A stretch of DNA of 63,228 nucleotides, filler included, from Nemertoderma westbladi (Eukaryota > Animalia > Xenacoelomorpha): assembly GCA_032718475.1 (NCBI GenBank). It is 3 parts of 3 records of this genome, joined end to end, with 100 filler letters (N's around TTAATTAATTAA, not from the genome) between each part and the next. Parts side by side here need not be neighbours in the genome. Positions count along the whole stretch, not along the records: positions 1 to 27,920 come from JAUCBJ010006394.1; 2 more parts are not named here. One strand, 5' to 3'. The stretch's first letter is position 1; each line of letters opens with the position of its first letter. A program made the translations under genes and the position numbers. Under the pieces are notes generated by a model. That model worked only from the letters and a program-made list of their open reading frames with translations, ran no database searches and was not told the origin of the DNA. Positions 5,232 through 62,915 of the stretch are shown here, piece after piece.

Positions 5232-8200
5232 CCGTAGAACCTGCCAACTTTGACCCACGTTCGACATAAATTGATAAATATCTTTAGCACATTTGAATTT
5301 ACCACCAATTTTTTTTCACCATTCAATGAGTTGGTTGGTCAGCAACAAGCCTACAGCTTATCACTGGTAGATAGCCAGTGATAGGCTGTATTTTTTTTAA
5401 AAACCAGGGTGGGCAAAGTTGCATTAACAAATTCCAACTTTGGCCCAAGTGTTCATCAGGCAAGAAAACATGCTACTGCTGCTTTGGGCTACACTAGAAA
5501 ATATTTAACACAACTTTGTCCCAATCAGTAATAAATAAGTTATCCAATAAAAAAAACCCGATGGTAAATCTCCTATCTGTTCAAAAGTTACAGATACTAC
5601 ACTACTACCAAACCAAAGTATTTACCTTGTAGGTATGCAGCATATTCCCCTTGTAGTGCTTGTAGTCTATATTTTCTCTCATATGAACTATTATTTTGGA
5701 GGGCCGGCCGGCGGTTGTGAATGTAAAACAAAGGGAATGGATAATGCCGGTCTACTGTAGTACAATTACATAGGGTAGTAAACTAGGTTTGTTTTGTATC
5801 TTCCATGTACAGTACATTTATACACACAATTACACGGCTGTCGCAGTTTTTTAAGCGTCTCGCAATCCTGCTAGTGTTATCCTCCAAACGGGAGCTTGCC
5901 TACTCCCAGTGTGTTGAGTTGAGCTGCGTAGTTTCTCTCGTCTCCGGGCAGTCCTGATGTGTCTGCGCGGGTCCCGTTCGAGTCCTCGATCCAACTTGCG
6001 AATGCAGGGGCGAACTACAGGGCGTAGACCCCTGCGGCGTTTTGGACGGCGGGTGACCTTGTACTCATTTTGTATATGTATTGCTATTGCTGTTGTTATT
6101 GATATTATTATTGTTTGTTAAAATTTATATTATTTTCTTAATGTTTTTGAAATTATTGTTTCTGTTATTTCACGTTGCTTTTATAGGCAGTAAAAGTATT
6201 ATATCGAATACACAACCAAATAACCTTTCAGTTTCAAATTGCACTTCAGACTTTTATACATAAAACAATTAGGTATGATAACAGTTACAGTATCACTTAA
6301 ACACATCGATAACAATTGAATTCTATCGATGCTATATTGACATTAATCAAGTCACGGAATGGTTCTGTGCAGGCTCTATGGAACCAACGAGCACAACTAT
6401 CACACCCAACAGTGCGATCATAATCTGGAGGGACAAACGGTACCAAACACTGAGCACATTTGTTCTCGTCTATAATGCTCCCCTCAGGCTCACTATCTTC
6501 TCCCTCTGCGCTATCATCTCCCCCCTCATTCTCACAAGCTGGCTCAGTAAGCCCTCCATCTTCATAGGAAAGGAGACTTTCCAAATCGTCAAGGAGACTA
6601 CAGTCCGATTCCGAATCACTCTCACTGCTAGACACAGGCGCAGCAACACTCCTTCCTGCCTCCACATTCAATCTTGTACGTTTCGACCGCCTGGGTTGAC
6701 TAGGAGCATTACCCCCTCTCAATTCTTGTAGCTGATCGATTAGAGCGCCATCTACAGCTGCTCCCGCTACAGCTGGTTCAGGACTGTCCTGGGGCAAACA
6801 CTTCAAGACCTCATTCCTATCGAGTGGAAAGATTCCACATGCTCGAAACCCAGAACGAACATTGTTCTCTTTACACCCTTGCTGAATTAAACTATTTAAC
6901 ATCTTCGGGAATTCCTCCTTAGATAGTGTTTCACCTTTCCTGTCAGCAAATCTACCCATCTTCCAGTCATGGAGTAACTGGCGCCAGATACGCTTCATAG
7001 GGCCAAAGAAGGCCTTATCCAGTGGTTGAGTTAGGTGTGTCGAGTTGCAAGGCAGGCACACGAAATGAATATTGTGTCTCTTACATGCCCGAAGAACATC
7101 CTCATTCAGATGTGATGATAGATTATCACCTATCATCACCTTTATTGAACCAATCTCAAGTGATTTAAAATATGGAATAGCAATGGTATTGAACCAGTCA
7201 GCAAACACAAATTCATCGAACCAACCGGACTTAGTTCGCCCATATCGTGTCCCAGGAGGCCCATCTTGAATCCAGGTATCATAGAGATGGGTAGACCTGT
7301 AAACTACATAAGGACTTAATATATGACCATCAGCTGCACCTGAAAACATAACGGAAGTGGAGGATTTTGAGTGATCTTTTACAGCTTGTGGATACTTTGT
7401 TCCTCGACGAACAATAGATCGCTTTTTCCCCGGATCGTCTGTAAGGTTCGTCTCATCATAATTTATGATGTTAGATGGTGGGATGTCTTTTAATTCGACT
7501 TCCAGATTGTCGAAATACTTATTGATCACATCGCTATCGACCTCAGCTCGTTTTCTCTTTATATTCTGTGTCAATCTGTACGTCAACTTATTCCGCTTTA
7601 TGAAACTTCTCATAAATTGATAGCCTGGAACATTATTCTTAAAAACACGCACTGATCGACCGAGGCGATTGAGGTAAGATTGTATTATGACTTGCGCATC
7701 AATTAGCGTTAGTGGGAATCCATATTCTGATACAGTGCAGAACCGTTCGGCCAATATCTGCTCTTCTTGATCCGAAAAGATGCGCGGATGACCAACTTCT
7801 CCAAGGTGGCGTTTCTTTATTCGATTTTTCAGAGTGGATCGAGGAATATTGTAGTGCCTACTTGCGTCTCGTTGCGTCAATTCCTTGCCTGCTATTTTAG
7901 CCAAAGCCTCCTCCAGCTTCTCCTTTGTATATTGGCGGTATTGCCGTGCACCACACTTCCTTCTCTTTAAATTTGGAGCCATGATACAGTATGATATGAT
8001 ATGATAAAGTAGGGTGGTAGAGGTACTGGTAGACAGCAAGCAAGAACAACAGGGCTGAAAGAACAACTTTGTAAACTGATAACTGAATAAAGGTTCTCTG
8101 TAAAGCCTGTATAGCAATTTGGGCCAAAGTTGGTATTTAATAGCACATTTTCAAAGGCAACTTTACCCACCCTCTAAAATTATAGGAGACAATCGGGGAA

Positions 8201-8538: not shown

Positions 8539-9597
8539 TACCGGCAGAATTGCAGAATTTTATTATTCTGGCAGTCTGGTTCTGTGGTTTCAGATTCAGT
8601 TACGGAGCTGTATACCTTTATACTGTTATAGCATACGGCATAGGCCTAAGCAAAGCATAGCATGTATAGCAGTATAGTGCAGTGCAGTACAACAGTAGTG
8701 ATACCGGTACTGTAAAAGCTTTTGTGGGATAACTGATTCGTTTGCCTTGCTGGCCAGTTCCCCCCCCCCCCCGGTCGCTAGAATACTCTAAAAGGGATCT
8801 ATAGGTAAAATAGTGCAAGCTACCAGCTTATTGGCTGATGGGCTGTACGAGAGTATCTGGGTTCTGTTCGATCGGCCAACCAGCTTAGGGAGGTTGCCTT
8901 AGCCCTGCTGTCCGTATCGGCCAATAGAATTTGAGTGGGCGTTGATTTTGACCTATCCCAGAGCTACTGAACTGAATTTTCCTATCTCACTGCTCATCCT
9001 CTGTGTTGGACGGGAGCTTCGGGGAATAAGGGTAGTTGGTATCCTCGTATAGTCAGGTAGTCATATGATTTTATATGATTCTGTTGTTGTGTTCCCATTT
9101 TCGCCATAACACCGGCTTTTTGGGAAGAACTCTAGTAAAACTGCTTAAATTATCGAAAGTATAAACTGTTATCTAATCAATCAACCGATCAATCAACTAA
9201 TCAATCAATCTTATCTGATCTAATTAACTCACTATTAATCATATTGTTTGTACTGTTATTTACCGTCAGTTATTAATTGTATCTATTTGTTGATGGAAAT
9301 ATTGCTCTTTGGAGAATACTGATAAATCACCCAAATTTCCCAATTTTCTTGATACACTACAGGTTAGAGAGACAGGCTATATATAACAATTGCGATTTAT
9401 ATTAATGTGGTGTGTATTGAATCTAATGTTATTTAGCAGACCCTACATGAGTCAATTGCTGCTCTCTTTATGTGTGATCAAATTTACTGACGGTCGGCAG
9501 AATAGTGTGCATGATTGTGATTGGTAACAAAGCATTTCCTAAAGAATGCGCCTTATACTTTAATCATAAGCAGTATCGTTGCGTTTAGTATAAGTCC

Positions 9598-12500
9598 GAG
9601 AGAAAGCCGCCCCAATATTAGATTATTACAACAACATTTCCATTGGGTAAGAAAGTGGAGGAGAGCCAGCCCGACTCTCAATTTTTTGTTTATATTACGC
9701 GATCAATTTTCACTCATCTCGTCATGAACCCAAAAACATGTATGTAACCTTTTGATAAATTTGTTGGCTATGCGTTTGCGGCTGTTTAGGCGGGGTGTGG
9801 TAGGCCTACACTTTTCACACTGAAACATTTTGGTTGTGAAATGTTCAGGGCAAAGCGATCAGAGATATTTCATATATATTTTATTATGAGAGGAAGAAGA
9901 ACATACAACGTTATTTACTATATATGTAACATAATAATTGTTTTCGGGTTTAACTTGGAAGCCTCCCCAAATAGTTGATATACGATTATACTTAAAATTA
10001 TTTCCATGGTCATGGTCATTCACCCGTCTTTAGTTAGAAATTTGTTTGCATGAAAGACAGTTTAGTTTGGTTTTTACTGGTTATTATCTCTTATCTGACT
10101 GGGGTAATAATAAAGGATAGGATAAATGGAAGCAAAGTGTGACAGTAACAAATATTTCCCCGTCACCCTAGCATGTCTTAAGTATACGATATCTAAAAGG
10201 GGGAAGTTTGGATTCACTGCATAAATGCAGTTCACCAAACTTCCCCCGAATGCACACTGTAACTTCCCCCTTCCCCCAAATATCCACTGTTAAATTAATT
10301 TGAAGCGATATAATAAGTACAAAATTGTGCGAGTTTTTAATTGTGTAGTCAATTTGTTATTTGATCTCTATTTATTGTTTAAAGTGCATTTAATATCACG
10401 CTGGTTTTTTAGAATATTACAACCTTATGTTTTATTTATTAACCCAATCGAAGCCTTAATAAGGGCCGCTTATTTGTACGCATATCCCTAATGCGCTCAG
10501 TATGAGCCAAACAACATATTAATATGAAAATAAAGTATCTGCAAAGAAAAGAACCCAATGCTATATAATTTGACCTTATTAAAAAATTTGCACTTTTGCA
10601 CACTTATTTGTACAAGTGCACTTCAGCAGATCGTAATGGTGGTTCTTATTTAACAAACTTATGTTTATCCTCTACCGATCTACGATGGTGTATGATCAAG
10701 TGTCAGTCACTAAAAGTGTAAAAAATCTAATTTAATAAATCGTGACATTTGCGATTTTGGACCATATTCATGGGCATTTTAAGTCACTTTATATACATAA
10801 AAAGTTAAACAAATGTTACGATTATAGTTAGAAATCACTCCAAACTACATTTTAATCCAAAAAATAACATTCTACGATGACAATGGAACTGGAAATAATA
10901 GTGTTTGAAATATCGAAAAAATGTGTACTTTTTAAGTGCATTATGCACTAAGTGCACATGCGTCTTTTCCCAAGTTGTATCCTATTTCACACACTACAAT
11001 CTATCCTCTATCCAATGAAAAAAGTTTCAGATCAAACGGCCCAGTAGAACAGAAGTTATTGATGTTTAAAAATAATCACTCGAAAATTTCAAATTCTCTT
11101 GGTCACATAGTCTAGTGGTTATCAATCACGTTAACGATACTTAAGTTCGTGGGTTCGAAACCCAATATGACCATTCTTAATTTTTTGCAAAAAAAAATAT
11201 TTTTAATTTTTGACTAAATTTCGGTTCTGGTGCTCCAAATTCAATAAAATTGGTATATTCTTTGCCGTAATTTTTTTTTCTATCTTTTGAGAGGGGGTAT
11301 TTTTGGCCCCAAAAAAAATGAAAAAAAAGGGCCAAAATTACGCGATATTTTTCGACCCTTAAAACTCGTTATTTTAATTATAAATGTTAAGAAAAAAGAT
11401 AGTGGAGTTCATTTTCTACATTTTACAGGAACTTTTGGCGCAAAAAGTTAAATTATAATGTAATGGCGATTTATTAAAAAAAAAATTTTTCGTCCCTTTT
11501 TTATAAGTAGTATATTTCACACGATCGTCTGCCGCTTCAGTTATATAATAGCTATGGCGCTGTAACTACCGTTCAAAGATAGATAATTTGACGCTCTATA
11601 AGACTGTTTAAATAAGTCTCCCAGACCTTATGTATTTTTCGAGCTAGACGAGTTCCCGCGAAGCGAGTTTGAAGCGTGAAATTATAATTTGGGCCCTAAT
11701 TTTTTTAATATCGTATGCGCGGCAAAACCAATCGAATATTTGGATTCCCCGTATCGATATTAACCGTATAAAATGTACTTTAACCTTCAATAGTCAAAAA
11801 TAAAAAAGTTGTTAGTTATAAACTTTTTATTATTTTCTGGCCCTTTTTGGACCCCTTTGCCTACATATTTTTTGTACCCCCATTCGATAGGAATGTAGCC
11901 CCTGTGGTCTTCTACGCTTTCCGAAAAAGAATTGGCAGATTCCTACTAGCGTTGTCGAATTAAAAATTTTGGAAATAATTATTATGTAAAAAAGATGGAA
12001 AAAACGGACAAAGTTACGGCCCCTTTTTCCACCCGAAATATTAATAAATATCTTACCCCCATTCGATACGAAGGTAGTACCACTCTTCCCCTTTCCAACC
12101 GCGTTAATTTCGTCCCCGTACGATTAATATTAGCCGAGTCAGAGCGGATCCCGCAAAGCCATTTTGTCCGTTTTTTCAACTTTGACGGACAATTTCGGGA
12201 AAAAGGCGTGGTAATCTTTTTTGAAAAAAAAAAACGAATTCACTAATTAATCCCTTCTATCGTATCCCGGCGTCGGCTAAGCAATAACCTAGGGTTTTTT
12301 CGAGCCACTGTAGAGCGCCTTTCAAAAAATTTTTAAAATTGTCAAAAAAATGACGGTTTTTTGTCCACCGTGTCCGTCGAGGGGATAGATTTGCTAATGT
12401 TAGAGTGGCTAATATCTTAGAATTCCGAGTCGCTCCCCTGGTGCGAAAATAAAAAAAATTGGTCTGTTCCTTCATCGAAAAGTCCCCCAGAATCCCAAGT

Positions 12501-12610
12501 TAACCTATATAGTTAGCGATGGCCTGCGGCTTTAGGAGCGGCCGCGGTATTCACCTCCCTCATAGCGGCCGCGGCGGTGTTGCGTCAAATGGAGAAATAT
12601 TTATCCCACC
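9598..12610. mobile_element. Unclassified 3-kb non-coding insertion in the 5' LTR
   Basis: Absent from the 3' LTR (aagtcc|tagttc) and from the diverged antisense LTR copy near 27430; no clear TIR or TSD beyond CC. Confidence 0.7.
11101..11173 (+). pseudogene. Degenerate tRNA-Val(AAC)-like sequence / SINE head
   Basis: A box TAGTCTAGTGG, B box GGTTCGAAACC, acceptor-like GGTCACA/TATGACC, loop TTAACGA; anticodon stem does not pair. Confidence 0.5.
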
Positions 12611-13012
12611 TAGTTCTGTTTAAATAGATAAAGCGCCACGTCCTAAAGGAACTGTTAATATTTCCCGAAAGCCAATAATATCTGTCAGAAATTTATTAAA
12701 AACGATCAATCGAATAATACAGTAAGTTTACACTGCAACCTTACACTGCAATAATAAAATTTAAGCAGCCGAATTCAGCCTCCCGGGTGTAGATCCATCG
12801 GGTGAATGATCGCGCATGGGCTGACTTCGGGTAATGTTTGTTTATTAGCATAAAATATTGTCGTATGCTAAAGGTGTTTTAATTAACTAAAAGACATATA
12901 AATTTTGGCAGGTTAAACTGCTAAAGGTCTTCAAAAGCGCGAACAATAACAGTTTATCATCTTATTGCAGTAAGCAATAAGGTTGCAAAATACCGTAGTG
13001 ACCGGTAACCTG

Positions 13013-13141
13013 AACCGGTACTTCTGTAGGTCAGTAGGCCCAACTGCCAGAACCGGTACTGCTGTAGGTCCGTAGGTCCAACTGCCAGAACCGGTACTTC
13101 TGTAGGTCTGTAGGCCCAACTGTCCTAACCGGTACTGCTGT
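13013..13141. repeat. 37-bp tandem repeat (~3.5 copies) in the element leader
   Basis: accggtact(t/g)ctgtaggtc(a/c/t)gtagg(c/t)ccaactgccaga repeated. Confidence 0.85.
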
Positions 13142-13309
13142 ATCAGTACATTAGTATTATTCGAATTTGATTGGTGTATACTGGTAGGTCTTAGTACTTA
13201 ATCAGGGACTGCAGCCCTGAATTTTTATTGAGATTCTACTTATTTCTGTCGGTTTTATTTACTAGTAGGCTAATATTGAGCAGAAGGCGTGTGACCCTGC
13301 TCAGATTGT

Positions 13310-13890
13310 TCAGATAATTGTAGGCTGAGCTGCTGTCTGACTGTTGTTGGGTTTGGAGAGATTACGGCGTGTGTAGAGTTTGTCTGATAAAGTGCCAGTT
13401 AGTAAGTTGGGGCAGCCATATGCTGTAAGGTCAATCCCCTCTTAAAGAATAAGTCGTACTACCGTGTTAGAACGCATACTAACTAACAGTTTCAGAGTCT
13501 GCATATACTGTAGTTTATTTAGGCTTGATCGTGGTCTGTCAGCATTTTGGCTTGTGTTTGTTTGTGTAGTCTGTTCAGGTACCGTAATAGTTATTACTCA
13601 GATATTTTGTAGGCTGGATTGTTGTCTAGCTATTTTTAGGTCTGAAGGGATTGCTGCGTGTGTAGAGTTGTCTGATAAAGTGCCGTTAGTAAGTTGGGGC
13701 AGCCATATGCTGTAAGGTCAATCCCCTCTTAAAGAATAAGTCGTACTACCGTGTTAGAACGCATACTAACTAACAGTTTCAGAATCTGCACATACTGTAG
13801 TTTGTTTAGGCTTGATAGTAGTCTGCCAGCGTTTGGTTTGTATTTTGTTTGAGTATTCTGTACGGGTAGCGTAATATTTATTATTCAGAG
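13310..13890. repeat. ~288-bp direct tandem duplication in the element leader
   Basis: Block gttagtaagttggggcagccatatgctgtaaggtcaatcccctcttaaagaataag...aacagtttcaga occurs at ~13398 and ~13686. Confidence 0.9.
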
Positions 13891-15202
13891 TTTATGCGAT
13901 TATTCGCAACATTCATGTCCCCAAGTTTATTCCTACAGTAATTGTGCTTGTTATACATACCGTTATAGTTAAATTAACCCCGGTACTACACGGGCTGCTT
14001 GGCGTAGGACAAGACTGGTGACTTTGTGCTTCGGTCACTCCAGCAGATGCCGTGGTTCTTTTAACTGTTCAAGTATATTTAACTACTGATTATTTGTTAT
14101 ACCGGTACTTGTACCTAATTTAGGGTTTAGTGTACAGTGCTTTCCGGAGTAATTAGTGTGGGCAGTATATTTGTGTTGTAAAGTGGTTGATAGGCACATT
14201 CGTTAGCTCTATTAACTTCTGGGTAGGAACAATCCGTGATACATAACGTAGTACCTATAGCGATACGGTTATAGGTCGTCAGGCGGTAGTATTTTCCTAT
14301 CTGGACAGTGCAATATATTTACTACTACTTATTATTTCAAATACCGTAGTACCCTGTCCGTTGTAATAACCAGAATTCTAACCCTTTGTTAGGCTGGTTT
14401 GTAGACTTCCTGTAAAATTACCCTAAAAATTTCGTACGTAATATTTTGTTGTGTTTTAATTAGAGAATTAATCTCACCCATATCGTAAGTAATTTGTAGT
14501 ATTAAGTAACTTAGGTAAATTAGAATTATCAGTTTTAGTGTCTCAATAAGTAACACTTCACTGAGAGCGCACAGCTTCTGTGTAGTGATTCCCCCAGAAA
14601 TAATAACATTTATTTCAAATATTGACAAAAAACCCTTTTTAAACGGGTATATATCTATTATAAATCAACTCAAACGATTTATAAATAGTAGGCCTGCCAG
14701 ACAACAACTAGGTCTCAATATCAGTTGGACTACTGCTTAAATAACGGTAATAAAGTAAGTTAAAGTAACCAAGTAACCTTAAAATATTCAGAAATTCAAT
14801 TATTCTAAAAATAATTGACATACCGGTATTTACCATAGGCTTATTATATTTATTTCTATAAATTTGAGCTGAAATCATACCGGTATTCTGTAATTAATTC
14901 TAGTCCATAATTATACTTATATACTATAAGTGTAAGCTGTATACCGGTATTCACGATAGGCCTATTATATATTTATATATATTTGTGCTAAAATTATATA
15001 CCGGTACTCTGTGACAAATCTAGTCTGTAATAATACTTATATATATATTATAAGCATACCGGTATTCTAATATATTGTATATATATCACGTTACACTAAG
15101 TAACGGTATCGGTAATAAATCGCTAGGCTTGCGGTCATACTGAATTACCAGACTTGCTTTAACTGAAACTATAGTAGTAGACATTCAACTGTATAGCTAA
15201 AC

Positions 15203-18200
15203 ATGTCTGACACTCAGCAAAACCTGTCAGACAGTCTGATCGATACAACTATCTGTGACTCAGATAGGAGTGTGGAGCGATTAAGAAAGGAGTTCAGCTC
15301 ACCTCCTACTGCAAAAAAGGTCATCCCTCCAGTAGTATCAGACCCTAGGCTAATCCACCATAGGTCCATCATAGGTACTCGGGCACAGGTCAAACGGAAC
15401 CAAGAGGCAGTTGTCCTATCGCAGCAACATCTTGGTCAAGAACCTACTTCCCAGCGACCCGATAGCTCCAGTAGTTCGGATGCTGTAGAGCTGACCCCCG
15501 AACGCGGAGTGCAGATGACTACTACAGTCTACTCGGACCCCCTTCTTACCCTTCCTGCTGCAGTGCTAACTACTATATTCATTGCGGTGGAGGAACATCA
15601 AGCCGACTGGGCGAGGAATAAGCGAGCGACCCAAGATAATTATGCGGGATACGCCAGAGAAGAATTGATATCTATTGTCGAGTCACAATGGAACTTTCCC
15701 GGACTCGGACTCCCTTTGGATCTGTCCGAGGCTACTTGGGAAGATATACACAGGATGGGAGTGGCTAAAGATACAATGGATCCAGCTGTTTGGAAGAGGT
15801 CGGCAGCAGGATATGTGCAGGGATTCTTCGGCTCCTTGGAGCGATTGGAAGAACAACTGTTTCGACAACCTCAAGGACCTCAAGAGCAGGAAGAGCTGCT
15901 ATACCAGATACGCGAAAGAACCCTACGCATACGACTAATCCTCTCAGCCTTTGAGGAAACTTCCAAAAGAAGACAGGACACGTCGCTGCAGGTTGCTGTC
16001 AAAACTTGGTTACATCGGGTAGATCTCAAAGTACAGGAAACGGCCCAGTGGAAATCCCAGCTGGCTGAGAGATCAACCTATGAAGAACTAACTGATGTCA
16101 CCCTTTCTCAAGCGGAAAGCGAAGAGACCGCCGAGAAACCGCGAACTAGAGACGCTATCGACATTTATTTGTCCGACTATCAGAGATTCCTAGGAGACGA
16201 AGAGTTGAGGAGACGGCTGTTTGGACTTTCCCCTAATAGTGAAGGAACCAAGCTTGTGTTGGACTCAATCGATGCCGAAATGTTAGCTGCAAACCAAGCT
16301 GAATGTGATGAACAACTACGCCTCACTAGAGTCCGAGAAGAACAAGTAAAGAAAGAATGGATAGAGAAAAGAAGGGTGGCAGCAGCAGCGGCGGCAGAAG
16401 CAGAAGCCGAAAGAAAAGCAGCGGCGGCAGAAGCAGAAGCCGAAAGAAAGGCAGCAGTGGCAGAAGCAGAACGGAGAGCTTCTGAGGAGACTATCCAACT
16501 GGAGTTGGAAAATCTACAAGAGACGCAAGACAGTATAAATAAACAATTTACTGCTAATCAAATGCAGATGATGAGAAAATCTACTCCCAAGCGTCAGGGA
16601 TACACATCCTCGGAGGAAGGCGAGACCACCGATCCTGAAGGCGGAGGAAATAGATCTCATCTAAGTAGGCGTAGAAAAACATATTAGCGTAGAAAAACAT
16701 ATTACCGTCGCAAATTGCCTGATTTGCCCCCAGCTGTTAGAAGACAGCTAGCTAGCACAGACTTGAGTAGTATAGAACCTACAGCCCAAAGTATTAAGGT
16801 CAAAAGACTCCCTACAATAGTTGATGAGCCTGAAATAATTAGGCCTGTCGTTCCCAAAGTCACTTCTGTGTTAGAGACCCCTGTACTTCCAGAGCTTAAC
16901 TCTAAATTCCCTTTACATAGTACTACACTGCCTGTACCCGGTGGAACAGTCCAAGAGAATGTCCCTGTCCAGATAGCAGAGAGAGAAATCAAAAATTTGT
17001 CTCCCGTCGTCCCGCGTCAGCCCGCTACTATGTTGGCGACTCCCGCTTCGGCGGTTGAGTGGGTGGAAGAGGGACGGCGGGGGATGAATCTCCTGCTGGG
17101 ACAGATGCAGGAGACTGTCCACCAACTTAAGGGAACAGTGAGGGAAAGTAGAGCAGAGTTGCAAGAAGTGCAGCAAAGTATCGCGCTAGAACGCGACAAA
17201 TTAGTCAATATACAAAAGGGCATACCAATACCCCCTGTAACATTGTGTCAACCTGTTAGGTCTGAAGTATTACATGCGCAAGGTGTGGAGCCTACACGCA
17301 TCTATACTGCTAGTGAAGTTGAAACCCCTATAGCAAACCCTATTAAGGGTGATTATAGACCTGTTATTAATGATATTCCCTATAGACCTGATAATGATCC
17401 GAGAAATTTATATACCGATAATTCGATATTAAATAACACGATGGCCCAAGAAAGCTTTACGCGTCAGATGGCTAGAACAGAAGCCCGCCAAGCGGTCAAA
17501 GTGGGAGAGATCGTCAAATTCAATGGAGATGAGATGAAATGGTTACCTTTCAACGAATATTACAAAGATAGCATACAGAACTCTGTACTATCTAACGGAG
17601 AGAAACTTAGATTCCTCATTAAGTGCTTGGAAGGACCTCCCAAGTTAATGGCGTTAAAGTTTATTGGACATCCAGATGGATTAAGACAAGTTTGGGATAC
17701 ACTAAACATCAGGTATGGATGGTAACAAGGATAACATAGCTAAGTATTTGTATGCAAAATTAGTAGCCCCCCGACACTTCCTTAGTAACGGGATTATAGA
17801 ATTTTCCGATGAAATTCAGGAAATCTGTAGACAATTGGACTGGTTAGGTAAGTCTCATGAATATCAGAGTTCCATGGTTATTGCAGCAGTAGTATCTACT
17901 TTACCTAAGGGTGGAGTATGTACACGCTGGGACAAGAAAGTGTTGTACATGAATGAACAACAACGACGAAGTCCTACCATGGCTGATCTCATGTCCTTCT
18001 TAGATGGTGAGGTAAAACTACAACTCATCAAGCAGGCCAGAGAGAAAACATCGGAAAATAAGGTAAGTGAGAAACCCGTTTCTAGGAGAAGGATAATACC
18101 AGTGTGTTACACTGACGACGGCGAGAGCCAAGCTTCTCAAGAAGAGGACAGCGATAAAGACACAGCAAAATCTTACTATGACAACAAGACCTATAAAGAC

Positions 18201-19781
18201 GTAAGTAAATACAAGTCTCGCATCAGTGACAGGAGAGAACAGGTAACAACAACTCCTCCTACGTCTCCTAAGAGAATTCACGGAAGAAAGCCCGAAGAAA
18301 GAACGAGAGTGCATAACGTTACCCAAGGTAAGGTGAGTAACATCAAACCAAAATGTGCGCTGTGCGACGGGCCCCACCGTTTGAGTGCGTGTGCTGAATT
18401 TCTAAAGAAATCCCCTGTAGACAGACGTACAGTCCTGTGGAATAAGCGGTTATGCTATAATTGCCTCAGATCAGGACACCAACGGCGAACCTGTTACTCT
18501 GACGTAAAGTGTGCAAAGTGTGGCGCGAAACATCACATCTTGTTACACAGTGAGTTCGAACGAGACAACCCGAGTCAGGTAAGTGAGCCCGAACTACATG
18601 TCCAATTCAGTGATGTGAACGACACTGACCAAGGTTCTGAGTGGGAAGGATTCTATACAGACGAATTCTCCGATGCCAACGAATCCTGTTATCTAATAAA
18701 TACCACAGTGTATCGAGCACTTACGGATGAAAAGGACACTGACGAGTTTACTCCAACTCCTTTTGACAAACAACCATCTTGGAAAGTTCCAACTTCCAAC
18801 ATAGGAATAAGAGAATTTCCTGTAGTACAAGTTCGAGTTCATGGTCTCAACAAGAGTTACATAGTGAACGCCCTACTTGACTCCGGCAGCACAGGAACAT
18901 TCATCGATCAAGAACTAGCCGAAGATATCTTTGCTGGACAACCCAAGTTCCGGACTAAATTGAATATGTCAGGAATTATGCAGGTTTGGAAATCTACCCT
19001 AACGGCAGATTACTATGTAGGTGTGTTGTCCACCCCCCAGGATAAGTTAGGAACACAAGGTATAAGGTCAGTAAAAATGGTGGCTATAAAGAACTTTGCT
19101 ACTACTCAAGCAGACCTTTATAATTGGGACGAAGATGAGAGCATCCAACATCTTAAGATACCTCGATTCCAGACAGATTATCCTGGAGTGCAAATACTCA
19201 TCGGCCAAAACGCGCACGAGGCGCTCGAAACATTAGAGAAACGGCCTGCTCAACCACAGCCACTGCAAACCTATGCGGTAAGAACTAGAGTAGGTTGGTA
19301 CTTCACTGGCCCTTCCCGTAGAACTCTCAAAGAGAGATTACCTCAACAGCAGGTATACCAAGTAAAGGGGGAAGTGGAGAGCAGTGATGTGGACAATCCA
19401 ACTGAGGGAACACCATACTCCTCAGATAATGACGATATTAACTCCAATGTAGATCAATGGAGACATTGCCTTGGGACGATTAATCCAGCCGACATCGCTT
19501 CCAGAGGAGCAACTCCTCAAGAACTGATAGATACTCCAGGCTGGTTAGGTGGATCCGACTCCTTAAGTAAAGAAGAAGAAGAATGGCCTCCTCATCTTAC
19601 CACGGCAGAAATTAGACAGGCCAAGGGAGCGGAGAAAGTAACACAACAACTCAATCGCCCAGCTAGTCGTTTATGTTTACTGGAAAGAGACCGAAAACTG
19701 TCCGGAAACTATGGAAGGCAAGATACTCTTCCTACGACCACTTCCCTAATCCGACAAATATCTAGGGACTCCATAACGTAA
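15203..19781 (+). pseudogene. BEL/Pao Gag-protease polyprotein (about 1518 aa once an 18-bp and a 4-bp duplication are removed); RT and integrase absent
   Basis: KFNGDEMKW...L..RYG Gag region; CALCDGPH...C, CYNCLRSGH...C, CAKCGAKHHILLH; ALLDSGS; stub QWRHCLGTINPADIASRG; tail RPASRLCLLE. Confidence 0.9.
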
Positions 19782-21401
19782 TAACATATGGAGTGGGCGT
19801 GTGACTATATCATTTTATATTTGTTTTTATTTTATATTTATGTATGTATTATTGTGTAATTTTATTATAATCGTTTTCTTTAATTTTATTTAGTAGAATG
19901 TTATTTTAGAATATTTAGTAAATTAGTGCAATGTATTAGTGTTTATTACGTATTTAATTACTTACAATATATTTAGTGCGACGGCAAGAAATAATTATTT
20001 TTCTCTTTCCTTACTGTCCGTATTATATTATAAATGCGAGACTATAGTAAGATGACATGTCAGTACTTATTAAAGTACAATAAAGCCACTACTATATTTA
20101 AGTATTATTGGTAGGCAGAGTATTAGGAATGCAAAGTTCAGATCCTCGTGTCTCGGCTAAACCAAGCTCTGGGTAGACCTTGGAAACGACTTGCCTCTTC
20201 ACACTGACATTGCTTCGTGCGATATTGCTCTTCTACCTTATATTAAATAATACATATAGTAGCGTGATGTCCCTCTAACAGTAGCGTAAATCGCAAATAA
20301 ATCTGTTAAACTTTTTGACCATCTGTAATTCTAGTCGATTAAGATATCGTGGCACCCACCGATATACTTGAAAGACAAATTCTAGAATCAGTGGTTAACG
20401 TTCCCAGACAAGTTCTGGAATAAATCGGTGCCCATCCTAAATATTAATTTAATATTTATTAAAATCTGTAAAATTCCGATCCTTTAAAATTTCTAGTCAA
20501 TTAAAATATCGCAGTATTTACCGATATTCTTAAAGGGACGATTTTATAGAATTAAGGATCCTGAGTCCCCAGACATGCTCTGGAATAAAATTTGTGTCAA
20601 TTTAACATCAAATAATAAAATTCACGGGAATAAATTTAAATTCATATTCAAATGAATTTCATAAATTGTCATTTTGTGCAATTTATAACATTCCCAAAAT
20701 TCCAGTAATTAATAGATCATGGGAGCGGAGATTCATATTGAGTGTACTAGAGTGCGAGAATCTCCAACATAGAGTCAATAGCCGATAAAATTTATAAAAT
20801 CATGCATAAAGAGGATATTGACAATTAAAGAATTACTATTAAATAGCATCCCAGATCTGTATGCATGAGAATTACCCTAATTCTACCGCTAGTTTTCCAT
20901 AATGTCACCATGGCAACACCCACGCTAGAATTAGAAGCAAGTTAAAGGATCAATAAAAAGCTTGCCCCATTGCGTAGCCTAAGAGTATACATAGCGCACT
21001 ATTAGTATCCAAGGATACATAGTAATAACGTGACATTCTGGAAGACACTGACTAACGGACAAATGGCCTGCATGTGTGCAGTAAGTAATGATTGTATGGA
21101 ATTTGTGCGTTTATAGGTGAATGTTACTACTAAAGTGTGTTTACAGTAGCTAATCGCAATTGTAAAGTAGCCCTAACTCTACCGAGATAACCTTAAGTGG
21201 ATTCAAGCCTTTGGGACGGACAGTGGTGGGACTTGTGCCGGTTATCATTGTCGTGTTGTTGCTACATGTTGGTGTAAACACCGCGACAACGGTACATCGG
21301 CGCTGAGAAACCCACTGTCCGGGGGCAAAGACTAGTAGGCAGCGACGCCCGCTTGCCTAAATATTAACTCATACTGATATTAATAAACTCAGATAGCAGA
21401 T

Positions 21402-22851
21402 ATGACGGAATTGATAGAAGATGACCTTGGTATTAGAGAGCGATATACTCTACCTTTACAAGCGTTTGTGGATAGCTTGATACGCGGTGAAGCCGATCCG
21501 ACTATTACGGAGGACGATGGTCGTTATATCGAACCGCCGATGTCCCAAGAGCAACTTACGCGTGAATTGGACTATCGAAAATTAACCGCTCGCTATACGC
21601 ATCGTAATGGTACGTATATGGACTTCCTAACTACCGGCCATCCTATCGATTTACATGATACGGACGATGTATACACCGAAAGGGAAATGGTTCTATTTAA
21701 ATATCATACCCAGCGGAGTCGTAACGATAAACCGAGAATAGATCACGAAAATTATATTCGTAACAGACTGGGAAGACGAACCAATATGCCTAGAATCTGA
21801 GGAGATTCAGCCTATCGTGCCCGGAACAACGACAACGATTACCTCCTAGAATGGTATCAAGGTCCACAGTGTCTCACTGCGTACGATTATCGCCATGCCA
21901 ACTATGTTTCTCGGCAACGTTGTCGGTTATGCGCATCGAGAGACCATGTTACGCCCATGGACACAAACGTCCGCTGTTCCTATTTCCACGAACAACCGAC
22001 GATGGAAATTTATTGCGCGTATTACAGACTCAATAACTTGCACATTTTTGCGGTTTGCCCTCAATTTATGACTCAATGTCACCATTGTCAACTAAAGGGA
22101 TGCGCCAGTTTCGATTGCCCTTTTTAGTCACGATTTGGAAGGCGTAGATGAAATGATCACACTACGTTACATCAGAGCTTGGGAAGCGAACGCTGATTTA
22201 CATTGTGATTCGCGCCATCGTTATTATCCTGGACGCGCTTACGAAGGAGTTTATGCGTTCCATCCTTATCTATTCGCTTCTGTCGAACAGAAATCACGCA
22301 TATCAAGTTATGAACTATTGAAGCGCGTTGGAGAATGTATTTCAACTAAATATGTACGCAAATTCCTCAGGAGCATTAATCCGAGTGACATCCATTCTTA
22401 CAACTTAATAAACTTTATCCGTCAAGACCCTGCCTATGGAGACTTATTTGTCAACTCACACCCCGAGTTACAGGAAGTATATCGACGGCCTTACGAGTAC
22501 CGAGCCCGCGAACGCGAGTTGGAAAGAACCATTAAACCAAGGAAGTTTCTAACTACCTATGGTCCACCCACGGCCCTCGTGCAGACCACTCGTACAGGAC
22601 CCGTAAGAGCGGCTGTCTTGAAACGAGCTCTCAAAGCCGTTAGACCCCTCTCCCCGGACGTTGATGTCAATCAACCCGGTACTTCGACCGGCGGATATAC
22701 CGATCGTAATCCCATACCTTCTGATGCAATCATATTGCACCCTTCACCCAGGAGTTATAGCCCTCCTCGTAAAGTGGCTCGCCCCAAAGAGAAAAGGACT
22801 CTTGCTAGCTTTAAAAAACTGCGTAAACGCCGTCCGCGCAAGAAAGACTAA
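21402..22851 (+). pseudogene. Accessory Cys/His-rich ORF in the env position (about 482 aa reconstructed; one TGA and one +1 shift)
   Basis: Frame stays open for 108 codons past TGA 21798-21800; one extra T in run 22121-22125 links it to the 22135-22851 ORF; basic tail KKLRKRRPRKKD. Confidence 0.7.
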
Positions 22852-22929
22852 CTGTTTAGAGTATTTTTATATTTTAGAAACTGTGATTTTGTATATTTTA
22901 TAGACTTAAATCCCATTTTCTGGGAGCGG

Positions 22930-24151
22930 TGTAAAAGCTTTTGTGGGATAACTGATTCGTTTGCCTTGCTGGCCAGTTCCCCCCCGGTCGCTAGAATACT
23001 CTAAAAGGGATCTATAGGTAAAATAGTGCAAGCTACCAGCTTATTGGCTGATGGGCTGTACGAGAGTATCTGGGTTCTGTTCGATCGGCCAACCAGCTTA
23101 GGGAGGTTGCCTTAGCCCTGCTGTCCGTATCGGCCAATAGAATTTGAGTGGGCGTTGATTTTGACCTATCCCAGAGCTACTGAACTGAATTTTCCTATCT
23201 CACTGCTCATCCTCTGTGTTGGACGGGAGCTTCGGGGAATAAGGGTAGTTGGTATCCTCGTATAGTCAGGTAGTCATATGATTTTATATGATTCTGTTGT
23301 TGTGTTCCCATTTTCGCCATAACACCGGCTTTTTGGGAAGAACTCTAGTAAAACTGCTTAAATTATCGAAAGTATAAACTGTTATCTAATCAATCAACCG
23401 ATCAATCAACTAATCAATCAATCTTATCTGATCTAATTAACTCACTATTTATCATATTGTTTGTACTGTTATTTACCGTCAGTTATTAATTGTATCTATT
23501 TGTTGATGGAAATATTGCTCTTTGGAGAATACTGATAAATCACCCAAATTTCCCAATTTTCTTGATACACTACAGGTTAGAGAGACAGGCTATATATAAC
23601 AATTGCGATTTATATTAATGTGGTGTGTATTGAATCTAATGTTATTTAGCAGACCCTACATGAGTCAATTGCTGCTCTCTTTATGTGTGATCAAATTTAC
23701 TGACGGTCGGCAGAATAGTGTGCATGATTGTGATTGTGATTGGTAACAAAGCATTTCCTAAAGAATGCGCCTTATACTTTAATCATAAGCAGTATCGTTG
23801 CGTTTAGTATAAGTCCTAGTTCTGTTTAAATAGATAAAGCGCCACGTCCTAAAGGAACTGTTAATATTTCCCGAAAGCCAATAATATCTGTCAGAAATTT
23901 ATTAATAACGATCAATCGAATAATACAGTAAGTTTACACTGCAACCTTACACTGCAATAATAAAATTTAAGCAGCCGAATTCAGCCTCCCGGGTGTAGAT
24001 CCATCGGGTGAATGATCGCGCATGGGCTGACTTCGGGTAATGTTTGTTTATTAGCATAAAATATTGTCGTATGCTAAAGGTGTTTTAATTAACTAAAAGA
24101 CATATAAATTTTGGCAGGTTAAACTGCTAAAGGTCTTCAAAAGCGCGAACA
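22930..24151 (+). repeat. 3' LTR, 1222 bp
   Basis: TGTAAAAGCTTTTG...GCGCGAACA, followed by TSD GGTAC; AATAAA at 23959-23964. Confidence 0.95.
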
Positions 24152-25211
24152 GGTACATCACTGACTGCGACAACTTTTAGCAAAGGACTACTATCAGTAG
24201 GCCTATACACTATACCAGTATACCAGTACAGCAGTATATGGCTGTATGGCAGTATGGTATACAGTCTGACCGTTTATTTTTAAATTAGATATAAAGCGGT
24301 AGGCTATTGCCAGTGGTTCCATTTAAATAATAATAAATATAAATTACCATAAGCAAAGTATAGCATATAGGTAAGTAATAGGGGTCTACACTGGCTGAAT
24401 ATTGTAATGAAACGCTGAATTTGGTGAACGTTTTCGCCCTACCGGGCTACGTCAGACCTATTATATTAATAAAGTATAGTGGAGTAATTAAATTCAATTC
24501 GAAATTCCCGCCACCTAAATAAAGCACTAATTGAATAGATAGTTCTAAGTAAGTCCTGTATGTAATATTATATAAACAAAGTCAAAAACAAAGTCAAAAA
24601 AACAAAAGTCTCCAGAATAAAATAGATTTTTATCCAAACTTACATAAAGTAAAAAGCTAATCGTGTCTCTAAGTAACTCTCGTACTATTATTATAAAAAC
24701 AAAAACCCCAAAACGCTCAGTTTCTACTCAGTATAACAAGTAAGGTAATATACAGCAAAACACACATTAGCAACCCCCATATGTCTGTATGTGTAATATC
24801 CATTCCCTCCAAAACACAAATTCCAAAAGTATATATAGTCCAACATATGCAATATAAAATATATTATCTATATAAAAATATAGTCCAACAGTAGTGAACC
24901 ATAAAACAGCTCAAAGCAATCCTTAGTTAATTAAGATAAAACTATAGCATCTACTGTATAGATTATAGTTAGGTTAATGAATAAGTGCGCTGTGAATAAT
25001 AAGTGAATAATGAAAATATGCGCGCTGCTCGTTAAGTAAGGTAGGTTAATGAATAAGTCTAACTGTAGATTATGCAATGTATAAGTTTAAGTGAAAAATA
25101 AGTAATATATTGAAAATAATGCATAAAACAACAGATTAAGACAAACCAAAAACATTCAATATGCGCGCTGCTCGTTAAGTAAGTTAGATTAAAGTTAGGT
25201 TAATGAATAGT

Positions 25212-26799: not shown

Positions 26800-27920
26800 T
26801 GTACGCGCTTTTAAAGACCTTTAGCAGTTTAACCTGCCAAAATTTATATGTCTTTTGGTTTATAAATAGACTTTAGAAGATGACAAATATTTAATACCAA
26901 TAAACACAACATTAGCAGAAGCCAGCCTAGTGCGCGTCCATTCACCCGCTGGATATACCCGGGAGACTGGATTCTGAGGGCTTAGATTATTATTGCAGTG
27001 TAAGCTTACTGTATTATTCGATTGATCGTTAATAAATAATTTCTGACCAATATTATTAACTTTCGGGAAATATTAACAGTTCCTTTAGGACGTGGCGCTC
27101 TATCTAGGTAAACAGAGATATGACTTATTGTTCGCGCTTTCAGACCTTTGGCAGTTTAACCCACCAAATTAAGATGTCTTCTAGATATTAAATCGGTTTT
27201 TAGTCTATGACAAGTATTTGATTCACTACACTAGTCGAAACCAATCCGTGCGCGACCATTCACCCGCTGGAGATTCCCGGGAGATTGGGTTCGACGGTTT
27301 AATTTTATTGCTATGTAAGCCTAATGTATTATTCGACTGACAGTACTATATAATCTCTGACAATATTATTCACCTTCGGTAATATTAACAGTTCCTTTAG
27401 GACGTGGCGCTTTATCTACATAAACAGAGTTATGACTTAAACTACTCACAACGATATGGCTTAATTATAATTCACATATATGGCGCATTCTTTAGGAATT
27501 GCTTCTTTAACAGACTCACTCATACACAATGCTGCACAATACTGCACACTAATCTGCCAATCTTCACGGATTTTAGTCACATATAAAAGGAACACAGACT
27601 GACTCATGTAGGGTCTATCAAATAACATTAGATTCACTTCAAACCACTTTAACATAAGTCACAATCGTTTATCTGTAACCCTTCTCTCTTACCTTCGGTA
27701 TATCAAGAATATTGGGTTTCGGGGTTATTTATCGTTATTCCAAATATAATTATTCATCCACCATATTATGAAGAACTGACAGTAAATAGCAGTATAAAAC
27801 AACAACTGAACACTGATTGTTATGAGTTTGCAATGTTTCAGCAGTCAGGATGTATGATCAGTCAGCAGTAGTCGTTAGTTAAAGGATATATGCCCTTTAT
27901 AATTAAACCTACTAGTGTAA
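26800..27920 (-). mobile_element. Diverged antisense LTR of the same BEL/Pao family with two tandem versions of the terminal ~310-bp unit
   Basis: Reverse complement shares gcgccacgtcctaaaggaactgttaatatt and ggttaaactgc(t/c)aaaggtct with the LTR; units at ~26800-27128 and ~27129-27438; homology continues to the gap. Confidence 0.85.
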
Positions 27921-30670: not shown

Positions 30671-31816
30671 TCAATGAGCCATTAATTCAGTGCCCAACTC
30701 TTCCACCGATGGCTCGTAGGCCTGATCCGATGGGGTGACAACGACCCCCTCCCAGATACTCATATCTTTATCAACATTACTCGCTCCCACCAACCCGAGC
30801 ACATGCGGGTCCCCGCCGTGCGTCAGCACCCGCAGAAGCGTCTGCGCCGTGTAGCAGACGAGATCCTGCTCCTCCAGACTGAGATCCTGGTGGACACGCT
30901 TCTGGCCGTATTCGCAGGGATCCACGATCCCAAGCGATCCGGGAAGGAAAATTCCCGAGGAGAGTAGTTGTAGAACCCGTCTGTAGGCCGCGTTTATAGG
31001 GAGTGGATCCCCTGAGGGTGTGTTCATTACCGAGTAGTGAGCGAGTAGATCCAACATCCAAACGTGGATCGGCTGCAAACCCGAGAACCGACGCTGTAAA
31101 TCCTTTAACAGACGCACGAGAACCTTGATCGCGGAGTGGCTGGCGTACTCCTCGAACCATTTAGTGTGTCGAACCATCGCCAAGTTCATCTGGAGCCCTT
31201 TAAACGGGAGATGTAACTCCGGATCGAGTTGACGTAGATTGGGTGGGATTGTTGCTATGAGCAACCGGACACACGCCGACGGAGACTTTACCAGAACGCC
31301 ATCCTCTCCCGGAATAAGTGTGAGAACCTCTTTATTGTCCGCATCCTTCATGTTCTCTACGATTTTCTGTCCGAGACTCGCGACCGCCTGTATCGTAGGT
31401 AAACTCTTTAGTATAACGACTAAATCCGCAGTGTTACTCCCTGCCATCATCGTACCTTTCTTAAACGAACCAACCTGCTTCACCTCATCGATAGTAACCT
31501 CAAACTTATCGGGTGGAGCCACTATCAACGCCTCCACGGCGCTCTGTACCTTGGCTACCAGGTTCAGCACAGACGTCTGTTCCTCGGGGGTTGGGGTTAA
31601 GTCCTGGGATCGTTTAACTAGCGCCTGCTGGAAGGCCGATTCGTTGGGGGGCTCCCCGACTCGTGTGAAGTGGGACTCTTGCACCTGGACCATGTCGAAG
31701 GGTTGATGGACCACTAGCGGTTTCGGGGGTTTGTGTTGGAAGTTGGGGCCCGCACCCCCGCGGTTCCCACGCCCGCGGTGGTTACTATGGAAAATACCTC
31801 GACCACGTCCGCCCAT
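30671..31816 (-). CDS. ILF2: Interleukin enhancer-binding factor 2 (NF45), DZF domain, single coding exon, 381 aa
   Basis: N-terminal RG-rich tail, VGSFKKGTMM, ADLVVILKSLPT, TIPPNLRQLDPELHL, GIVDPCE, VCYTAQTLLRVL, WEGVVVTPS match remembered NF45 motifs. Confidence 0.95.
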   Translation of the reverse strand: MGGRGRGIFHSNHRGRGNRGGAGPNFQHKPPKPLVVHQPFDMVQVQESHFTRVGEPPNESAFQQALVKRSQDLTPTPEEQTSVLNLVAKVQSAVEALIVAPPDKFEVTIDEVKQVGSFKKGTMMAGSNTADLVVILKSLPTIQAVASLGQKIVENMKDADNKEVLTLIPGEDGVLVKSPSACVRLLIATIPPNLRQLDPELHLPFKGLQMNLAMVRHTKWFEEYASHSAIKVLVRLLKDLQRRFSGLQPIHVWMLDLLAHYSVMNTPSGDPLPINAAYRRVLQLLSSGIFLPGSLGIVDPCEYGQKRVHQDLSLEEQDLVCYTAQTLLRVLTHGGDPHVLGLVGASNVDKDMSIWEGVVVTPSDQAYEPSVEELGTELMAH

Positions 31817-32335
31817 ACCGACCGCGTATCTTTATCTGTTTATGTTCCGAACAGCCGAAAACAGGAATATGGAATATAAGTAGACTGGGCAGCTATGACT
31901 GTAGGAGAGGATAGGCTACCTACCGAAACTATATACCGGTAGGCCTATACCAGTATACTGCAGTACTGAATACTGATATAGGGTATAGTACTGTCAGACT
32001 GTCACTGTAGTATCAAAAAGTTAAATTGCAACCAGTAAACCTAAAAATGTAAAATCATCTACAGATCTACCGACATGTAGCAAGTCTACTGACTACTAAC
32101 AGTTTGCTGTTGATACCACCATGATATTCCTTCTTTTATTGTATGTATGATACATTTTTATATATGAAAAGCTCTGTATGATTGACTCATACATCGTCAA
32201 CAATTTAAAGAATTCTTCATTTTGAATTTCCCACACGTTTATTTGTAGAACGGAGTACGAATATCAGTAGTGTATCGGAGTATGTAATTAGTGTGTCTTA
32301 CTTGGGGACAGGACAAGTTCACTATGTTTCGCATT

Positions 32336-32348: not shown

Positions 32349-32523
32349 AATGTTGGCAAGATATTTCAATACATAGCTAATATAAAATTAGAGAGTAATA
32401 GAGTTACGAAATTTTATAATCACCATAAATACATTCTAAATTAATTACCATTTATTACTTTGAAAAAATGTAATATAATTGTTTCAAATATTTATAAGAA
32501 TTAATTTCGATTATCAAAACCAG

Positions 32524-42178: not shown

Positions 42179-42507
42179 GGTCCTACTAAAAAAAGCAATT
42201 TACCGCAACTAACCGCAATTTACCGCAACTAATTGTCCTTTTTAAGCAGCCTCATGGTCTAGTGGTGACAACCTTAGACTTCAATAAGAGAAGCAAGAAT
42301 AACGAATAACTAAAGCAGAATAACGACACTATATTCTAGGACATGGTGAAATTGATATAGGCAGATAGGCCTAGGTTATTACCGTACCGGTAACGGTATT
42401 TATTAATATTTTTTCAATACCGGTATGGTTTATTATGAAAGTGCGGCATTAAACAGTTAAACTAAATGTTAAATTAAATTATTCAGCTGTTATTATTAAC
42501 AATCATA

Positions 42508-47495: not shown

Positions 47496-48417
47496 TTTAT
47501 AGCCAAAATCAATTACCAATTGATGGAAAGGAGCAGGTTAAGGCCGAGTTTTCTAACCAAAACAATAAACAGTCACTTTACCAAATCAGGGAAAGGAGCA
47601 GGTTACAGAGAAGGGATTTTCTAACCAAAACAATAAACGATCACTTAACTAATTGGGGGAAAGGAGCAGGTTACAGAGGCGGGATTTTCTAACCAAAACA
47701 ATAAACGATCACTTAACTTATTGAGGGAAAGGAGCAGGTTACAGAGGCGGGATTTTCTAACCAAAACAATAAACGATCATTTAACTAATTGAGGGAAAGG
47801 GACAGGTTACAGAGGCGGAATTTTCTAACCAAAACAATAAACGATCACTTAACTAATTGAGGGAAAGGAGCAGGTTACAGAGGCGGGATTTTCTAACCAA
47901 AACAATAAATGATCATTTAACTAATTGAGGGAAAGGGGCAGGTTACAGAGGCGGGCCTTTCTAACCAAAACAATAAACGGTCACTTTACCAATTCAGGGA
48001 AAGGAGCAGGTTACAGAGGCGGGATTTTCTAACCAAAACAATAAACGATCATTTAACTAATTGAGGGAAAGGGGCAGGTTACAGAGGCGGGATTTTCTAA
48101 CCAAAACAATAAACGATCATTTAACTAATTGAGGGAAAGGAGCAGGTTACAGAGACGGGATTTTCTAACCAAAACAATAAACGATAACATTACCAATTGA
48201 GAGAAAGGAGCAGGTTACAGAGGCGGGATTTTCTAACCAAAACAATAAACGATAACATTACCAATTGAGGGAAAGGAGCAGGTTACAGAGGCAGGATTTT
48301 CTAACCAAAACAATGAACGATCACTTAACTAATTGAGGGAAAGGAGCAGGTTAAGGCCGGATTTTCTAACCAAAACAATAAACAGTCACTTTACCAAATC
48401 AGGGAAAGGAGCAGGTT
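47496..48417. repeat. 68-bp minisatellite, ~13 copies; a solitary diverged copy lies at ~62610-62665
   Basis: ttttctaaccaaaacaataaacgatcacttaactaattgagggaaaggagcaggttacagaggcggga repeated. Confidence 0.92.
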
Positions 48418-62844: not shown

Positions 62845-62915
62845 GCATTGGTGGTTCAATGGTAGAATTCTCGCCTGCCACGCGGGAGGCCCGGGTTCGA
62901 TTCCCGGCCAATGCA
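62845..62915 (+). tRNA. tRNA-Gly(GCC)
   Basis: GCATTGGTGGTTCAATGGTAGAATTCTCGCCTGCCACGCGGGAGGCCCGGGTTCGATTCCCGGCCAATGCA: complete cloverleaf, TTTT terminator at 62924-62927. Confidence 0.97.

Follow-up and report, generated by a model that had tools for sequence, protein, structure and literature searches.

A BEL/Pao retrotransposon of Nemertoderma westbladi (Xenacoelomorpha; assembly GCA_032718475.1) carries, at the position of its primer-binding site (PBS), twelve nucleotides that are fully complementary to a word inside its own long terminal repeat (LTR), and self-priming is the best reading of this match. We judge it likely that some site in the LTR primes reverse transcription and, with less assurance, we favour the narrower view that the family primes minus-strand DNA synthesis from the 12-mer at position 9161, without a tRNA. 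The element lies in what we call the window, the whole stretch of 63,228 nucleotides analysed here (three parts joined by filler N's; positions 1 to 27,920 from JAUCBJ010006394.1), and all coordinates refer to it. Self-priming as put forward in the original prediction gains from a non-TGG junction that recurs across the family, from predicted stems resembling those of Tf1 and from the same signature in ten other loci; 9161 as the transcription start stays a prediction.

The element and its surroundings

The element spans 8711-24151, and the site of interest lies at the boundary of its 5' LTR (Table 1). In self-BLAST the 3' LTR aligns to 8711-9600 and 12609-12945, the gap between the two blocks being an insert. 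Between the two LTRs there are 2 mismatches and 2 gap openings; this near-identity, with GGTAC duplicated on either side of the element, marks the insertion as recent. The end of the LTR at 12945 is set by the end of the 3' LTR (24151) together with this duplication. The insert is itself a high-copy, non-coding repeat; a GC-rich palindromic stretch lies close to its right end, clear terminal inverted repeats were not seen in 9597-12608, and other contigs carry its ends in other contexts.

The gag-protease region reads, in order, DUF1759 (E 9.3e-05, under Pfam's cut-off), zinc knuckles, an aspartyl protease and then an RNase H tail only; the protease runs directly into this tail, and no RT or integrase frame was found in the element. 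The NPADxxSRG tail is present, PF05380 and PF18701 occur in 16 of 16 long homologues, and all domain-labelled protein matches are BEL/Pao. The element thus resembles the Belpaoviridae (Semotivirus) in its TG...CA LTRs of 1.2 kb, 5-bp target duplication, DUF1759 gag, zinc knuckles, protease, RNase H tail, purine tract and extra 3' frames, and differs from them in having no tRNA PBS, RT or integrase, so that the feature order PR-RT-RH-IN is not found in it. It is a recently inserted, non-autonomous BEL/Pao deletion derivative. Exact protein look-up recovered none of three proteins, a search of 1.84 billion proteins yielded no close full-length partner at E 1e-30, and an Rfam search of 8600-24300 gave no match.

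Several other features of the window were recorded. The extra 3' frames sit in the env position, and the 108-aa frame has many Cys and His residues. The leader (12946-15200) contains 11 occurrences of ACCGGTA or its complement, the whole window 38, and the element is inserted into an ACCGGTA-type word (8701-8710). Adjoining the element, a 617-aa frame on the minus strand (6297-8150) with HTH_psq, DDE_1 and PHD matches is a pogo-like DNA transposase. Long single frames at 30671-31831 (-), 32479-34455 (+) and 42478-44097 (+) match ILF2/DZF, Lebercilin and GLTSCR1, respectively; the ILF2 frame encodes both DZF domains uninterrupted by any intron, its best identity being 60% among the matches listed. 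Tandem arrays occupy 53718-58034 (30 bp x 144), 47518-48418 (68 bp x 13) and 61603-62398 (34 bp x about 23).

Table 1. Features of the element and of the diverged LTR copy, in window coordinates
Position	Strand	Feature	Basis or remark
8706-8710	.	5' target-site duplication GGTAC	Same letters as 24152-24156
8711-12945	+	5' LTR, TGT...ACA, split by insert	Self-BLAST to 3' LTR: 98.4% and 99.7%
9070-9101	+	TATA-like TTTATAT (9070) and Inr-like CCATTTT (9095), candidate core promoter upstream of the candidate primer	Motif scan
9133-9140	+	TATA-like word TAGTAAAA	Motif scan
9161-9172	+	Candidate self-primer ATAAACTGTTAT	12/12 complementary to PBS
9248-9271	+	Second look-alike site (ACTGTTAT, 9252-9259) and Inr-like TCAGTT (9266)	
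9363-9439	+	Candidate 77-nt intron in LTR (donor, CTAAT, YAG)	Signals also in antisense copy
about 9597-12608	.	Unrelated repeat of about 3.0 kb in 5' LTR	Missing from 3' LTR; contigs join across
12647-12658	+	Third look-alike site AACTGTTA (12650-12657 within)	Block unchanged in both antisense units
12734-12754	+	U5 arms of two predicted 10-bp stems with leader; overlap AATAAA at 12753	Fold
12903-12926	+	Hairpin near LTR end	Retained in antisense unit 1, with altered pairs
12946-12957	+	PBS position ATAACAGTTTAT, directly after the CA of the LTR, without TGG	
12961-12987	+	Leader segment: local hairpin (12961-12981) or U5-leader stems (12962-12971, 12978-12987)	
15197-19781	+	Gag-protease region, three open pieces (15197-16687, 16688-17725, 17706-19781)	
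21387-22851	+	Further 3' open frames of 137, 108 and 251 aa	No Pfam match
22922-22929	+	Purine-rich tract GGGAGCGG preceding 3' LTR	
22930-24151	+	3' LTR, 1,222 bp, carries the 12-mer at 23374-23385	Self-BLAST
24152-24156	.	3' target-site duplication GGTAC	5 bp, matches 8706-8710
26800-27920	-	Diverged LTR of the same family, last 330 bp or so tandemly duplicated	Cut by N gap

The primer-binding position and its complement in the LTR

The original prediction described twelve post-LTR nucleotides that do not start with TGG, that are the exact reverse complement of a word inside the LTR, and whose match begins precisely at the LTR boundary, with TAGTAAAA about 28 nt upstream of the LTR word and an 8-bp hairpin behind the site. 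All of these observations hold. The first TGG past the LTR is at 13172, 226 nt downstream; ATAACAGTTTAT has a single occurrence in the window (12946), and its complement has two (9161 and 23374), one per LTR; the boundary is the one fixed by the 3' LTR and the GGTAC duplication; a motif scan places the upstream word at 9133, 28 nt before 9161; and the hairpin at 12961-12981 is present in sequence and fold alike. At offset 0 the match covers exactly 12 bp, without extension on either side. The proposed R+U5 of about 770 nt is right for the LTR as it stands in the 3' copy, where the primer word lies 766 nt from the LTR end, but not for the 5' copy, in which the insert of about 3.0 kb separates the two words.

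An LTR complement of at least 12 bases was found for two of 9,953 internal start positions (12946 and 21152) and for 4 of 18,870 positions outside, and the Markov expectation for such a match is 3.5e-4 to 3.0e-3, by order. No random internal word among 300 reached 12 with offsets of 0-4 and strict splice junctions allowed. These random-word odds overstate the rarity of the match, because ACTGTTA occurs three times in the LTR, as against 16 times in 31.5 kb elsewhere (both strands).

The next best LTR sites pair 9 of the 12 PBS bases plus one G.U, and we consider it unlikely that one of them (9252-9259 or 12650-12657), or a splice junction, is the true primer and that the word at 9161 is a promoter word or a relic of LTR duplication. 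Two further sites do pair with 8 core bases of the PBS, roughly the part that is fixed; the one at 12650, at 287 nt from the LTR end closer to the spacing of the relatives described below, falls within an unchanged block, and intron-like signals are found in both LTR copies. Yet all 12 bases pair at 9161, primer copying should favour the perfect site, and no strict splice junction in the window LTR matches the PBS, the sole relaxed match reusing the 9161 word itself. A splice-made primer from the candidate intron was also rejected, its junction (9363-9439) not matching the PBS. The region 9248-9271 marks the start of the part common to the 5' LTR and the antisense copy.

A fold computed for 12609-13010 contains two perfect 10-bp stems between U5 and leader (12734-12743 with 12978-12987, and 12745-12754 with 12962-12971; pair probability 0.68-0.97), the local hairpin at 12961-12981 being a competing fold of the same leader. 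On the 5' side of the PBS, a weak 7-bp stem with wobbles joins the LTR end to 12835-12841 (probability 0.48-0.77). The U5-leader stems and the LTR-end stem are together predicted to leave the PBS unpaired in a loop; holding it open while both stems persist would cost 1.8 kcal/mol, and the primer duplex would yield -11.0. In the local fold of 9090-9400 most of the 12-mer (9161-9172) is paired elsewhere, which counts against it as the primer. An alternative in which GCGCGA at the U5 end pairs with 12811 and the antisense copy carries a compensating change was considered and dropped, since the folds chose 12835-12841 instead. Similar stems also flank tRNA-primed retroviral sites, so that flanking stems mark a primer site without naming the primer.

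The overlap of the U5 arm with AATAAA at 12753 would also suit a structural role for the PBS-LTR pairing, in packaging, dimerisation or silencing of the 5' polyadenylation signal, with some other primer in use as at the unexplained hairpin site of GalEa. In these fungal elements a conserved hairpin replaces the PBS, according to the available part of PMC5445492; but the same text gives GalEa no LTR complement, whereas the window element has one, and the match sets in right behind CA, at the base from which minus-strand synthesis has to start. We regard a purely structural pairing as very unlikely.

The antisense LTR copy lacks an equivalent match, as had been noted from the outset: the aligned position is occupied by a different word, and none of the PBS forms tried has a complement longer than 8 bases in it. 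This absence counts mildly against self-priming. Interrupted by the N gap and lacking the family leader behind it, the copy offers no PBS for comparison. Its duplication junction (26800-27440, minus strand) reads ACA-ATAA-GTC; a template switch may have left the first PBS bases there. The antisense tandem unit starts about where the 3-kb insert begins in the main LTR.

The site in family contigs and in metagenomic relatives

Eight runs were listed, all consisting of contigs and none recorded as RNA, and four of them were aligned to 8650-13010. In these four the family is very high-copy, and contigs join across the 3-kb insert; the variants read over this span were 40 of 329 substitution rows and 12 of 62 indel rows, all outside 9161-9172. 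Contigs from three studies (X3, X4 and X5) cross the LTR-PBS junction (12895-13008), X6 being without coverage of the leader; two of the 32 pieces listed, both from X5, bridge the junction with at least 31 letters per side. Substitutions at 1% or more within 12895-13008 make up five rows, all at 12942 and 12955-12958 and none listed at 12946-12954, and indels near the PBS fall at 12954-12961. Across the family, the first nine PBS bases are mostly kept and bases 10-13 are variable, while single contigs depart earlier in the PBS and then rejoin a similar leader. No TGG site was seen among the 15 loose ends listed (of 34). A non-tRNA site, in which about nine core bases are fixed and the tail varies, is a trait of the family. 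Contig depth, which is no measure of copy number, was about 760-780 at 9207 versus 184,000-309,000 at 9137. Limitation of the 12-mer region to one-fifth of the family was considered and rejected, the low bin being due to an AATC tract. A search of metagenome contigs for the LTR-end pattern returned no matches.

The recurrence of the junction bears on two further explanations. One is that a normal tRNA PBS was lost or scrambled in this copy, the match being an accident of one defective insertion. The copy is indeed rearranged, without RT and integrase and with an insert in its 5' LTR; but the junction recurs in contigs of three studies, no TGG form appears among the loose ends listed, and LTRs that differ by 2 mismatches imply that this form was mobile recently, which leaves the accident scarcely credible. 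The other is priming in trans by a host RNA, for instance a tRNA half cut in the anticodon loop, with the LTR match arising by chance helped by the recurring AACTG motif. We think this improbable. If a host RNA were the primer, the whole site should stay constant as its nine-base core does, yet bases 10-13 vary and single contigs depart earlier still; the varying tail disfavours a fixed host primer, and an LTR-borne primer would allow it. Related families, moreover, self-match in different letters. The tRNA-Gly(GCC) gene of the window (62845-62915) pairs at most 4 bases with the PBS, and a tRNA-Asn anticodon half, also considered, would pair about six. No 18-nt PBS for the 3' end of tRNA-Arg or tRNA-Gly was found, there being no TGG before 13172, although the ICTV profile describes the Belpaoviridae as primed by host tRNA through such a site (PMC8742986). 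Half-tRNA primers with non-TGG sites are, on the other hand, reported for Copia lineages in the available portions of PMC6317226 and PMC5445492.

The self-match was also sought among relatives. Ten of the 64 parts of a metagenome collection were scanned and yielded 79 BEL/Pao loci, ranked by likeness to P0001; 41 of these, in which the gag start and some upstream DNA were visible, were hand-picked for examination, near-duplicates and fragments being left out. Viral contigs gave one locus with alignment A1 and none with the window protein and were left out of the analysis. A self-match of 11-15 bases in the own LTR was found in ten of 31 non-TGG loci (L002, L008, L022, L032, L034, L035, L036, L052, L053 and L057), an eleventh, L048, having been dropped as a local repeat; none of ten tRNA-type TGG loci has a self-match of at least 11, only about five of them showing most of an LTR. 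L002 had first been labelled TGG and was moved when a 13-bp match was found next to gag. Shuffle controls produced 23 matches in 820, including 5 of 20 for L032 and 3 of 20 for L052.

In nine of the ten self-matching loci (all but L053) the match crosses the junction of a GTRAG...YAG LTR intron, so that pairing arises only with the junction formed after intron removal; in L053 it is unspliced, as in the window element. Six have a 3-nt spacer after the LTR, the LTR end being set by two-LTR comparison only in L008 and L053 and elsewhere inferred from ACA or ATA before the match. The PBS and primer letters differ in every self-matching family, which is co-variation across families. All ten relatives' primers end in A plus a pyrimidine, followed in eight by C, and the window primer word ends in TAT and is followed by C (judged by eye). 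The window element thus shares with this non-TGG clade the lack of a tRNA site, pairing with the own LTR and the primer-end context, and differs in its direct rather than intron-derived match, in having no spacer, and in a primer lying 766 nt from the LTR end as against 51-200 nt in the nine relatives measured.

In an integrase tree (42 rows, quick mode), one branch with SH-aLRT 98 parts the ten self-matching loci from 11 TGG-type loci, L014 and L074 being labelled TGG-type by eye and L038 left out. The window element, which has no integrase, has a long gag-protease branch (1.93) in no starred set; 35 of its 69 protein matches are nearer the self-matching clade and 34 nearer others. The proteins thus give it no place inside that clade, a point against the self-priming reading.

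Transcription start, proposed priming and known systems

TATA-like words occur in the LTR at 9070, 9133, 9160 (TATAAA, 9160-9165, overlapping the 12-mer) and 9378-9386 (including TATATAA at 9380), and Inr-like words at 9095 and 9266 among others; these motifs are candidate promoter elements. Some of them speak against the 9161 primer: a start directed by TATAAA at 9160, at TCAGTT (9266) or from TATATAA at 9380 would exclude the 12-mer. With 9160 as the TATA box, or with 9266 as the start, the 5' part of the RNA would not contain the 12-mer and the reading would fail; with a start near 9097 or at 9161, it would hold. It also counts against the 9161 primer that it lies 766 nt from the LTR end, as against 51-200 nt in nine relatives, and that nine of ten relatives require splicing for their primer and the window element does not. 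In L008, one of the relatives, the primer is preceded by a TATA-like word some 130 nt upstream. By this analogy the primer does not have to stand at the very start of the RNA, and transcription beginning upstream of 9161 is compatible with self-priming. The original prediction held that a start far from LTR position 451 or so would refute self-priming; judged by L008 this is too strict, an upstream start being harmless and only a start past 9172 counting. The putative intron signals at 9363-9439 recur in the antisense copy, a hint that transcription may begin upstream of 9363.

Under self-priming, a transcript starting at or upstream of 9161 would fold back, the 12-mer would then anneal to the PBS, and RNase H supplied in trans would cut after 9172 to leave a free 3' OH, as in Tf1. 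Copying of the primer in plus-strand synthesis would keep the PBS and the LTR word exactly complementary while both drift between subfamilies. The window copy cannot complete this cycle by itself: RT and integrase are missing from it, and the 3-kb insert interrupts its 5' LTR.

Self-priming has been shown for Tf1 of Schizosaccharomyces pombe (PMC7175516) and proposed for Tj1 (PMC4600332), to go by the sections available of each. Like Tf1/Tf2, Tj1 and Tosmo of the Tf1/sushi group of Ty3/gypsy, as described in the accessible parts of these sources and of bioRxiv 10.1101/2022.12.06.519325, the window element has an LTR-adjacent PBS with some 11-12 bases complementary to the own LTR. The layout that Tf1 requires, by the same preprint text, is a central primer-PBS duplex with two duplexes between the neighbours of the PBS and LTR sequence. 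In the window element the fold gives candidate duplexes on both sides of the PBS that may correspond to this 'pretzel', the 5' one weak and the 3' ones in competition with a local hairpin. The window element differs from Tf1 in being BEL/Pao by its DUF1759 and its homologues and in a primer 766 nt from the LTR end; a primer at the RNA 5' end and RNase H cleavage, as known in Tf1, are predictions for this element. Its domain-labelled matches being all BEL/Pao, the element is not, on protein likeness, a member of the Tf1/sushi group (Ty3/gypsy chromoviruses). Self-priming has also been predicted for plant lineages, Tcn1 of Ty3/gypsy and, within Ty1/copia, TAR, Houba and Osr-1, where the available text of PMC6317226 looks for at least 10 bases complementary to the own 5' LTR within 0-5 nt after it. 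The window element has 12 at offset 0, these cases belonging to other superfamilies and hosts and being predictions only.

For BEL/Pao itself, replication is poorly understood according to the ICTV profile (PMC8742986). The terms tRNA and PBS are not mentioned in the available text of a BEL/Pao survey (PMC3118150), with which 7,861 BEL/Pao sequences are filed, or of the Sinbad paper (PMC554778), and the accessible portions of PMC3601003, PMC3286476, PMC8220671, PMC5443660 and PMC5445492 contain no case of BEL/Pao self-priming. A search of literature other than subscription journals, partly in excerpts, found no published case, in line with the original prediction, which knew of none.

A broader view, which we hold tentatively and at somewhat less than even strength, is that tRNA-independent self-priming is normal in a whole branch of animal BEL/Pao elements, mostly by way of a spliced LTR intron. 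The window element would then be an intron-free form whose primer lies about 770 nt inside a much enlarged R-U5 and is not necessarily the RNA 5' end, RNase H releasing a capped primer with a long 5' tail. The window copy, being defective, is of lower value than this general claim. If self-priming is true of these elements, BEL/Pao would be the third self-priming superfamily of LTR retrotransposons, beside Ty3/gypsy (shown, in Tf1) and Ty1/copia (predicted); it would explain BEL/Pao elements without a detectable PBS, and it would mean that tRNA-based LTR annotation misses a group.
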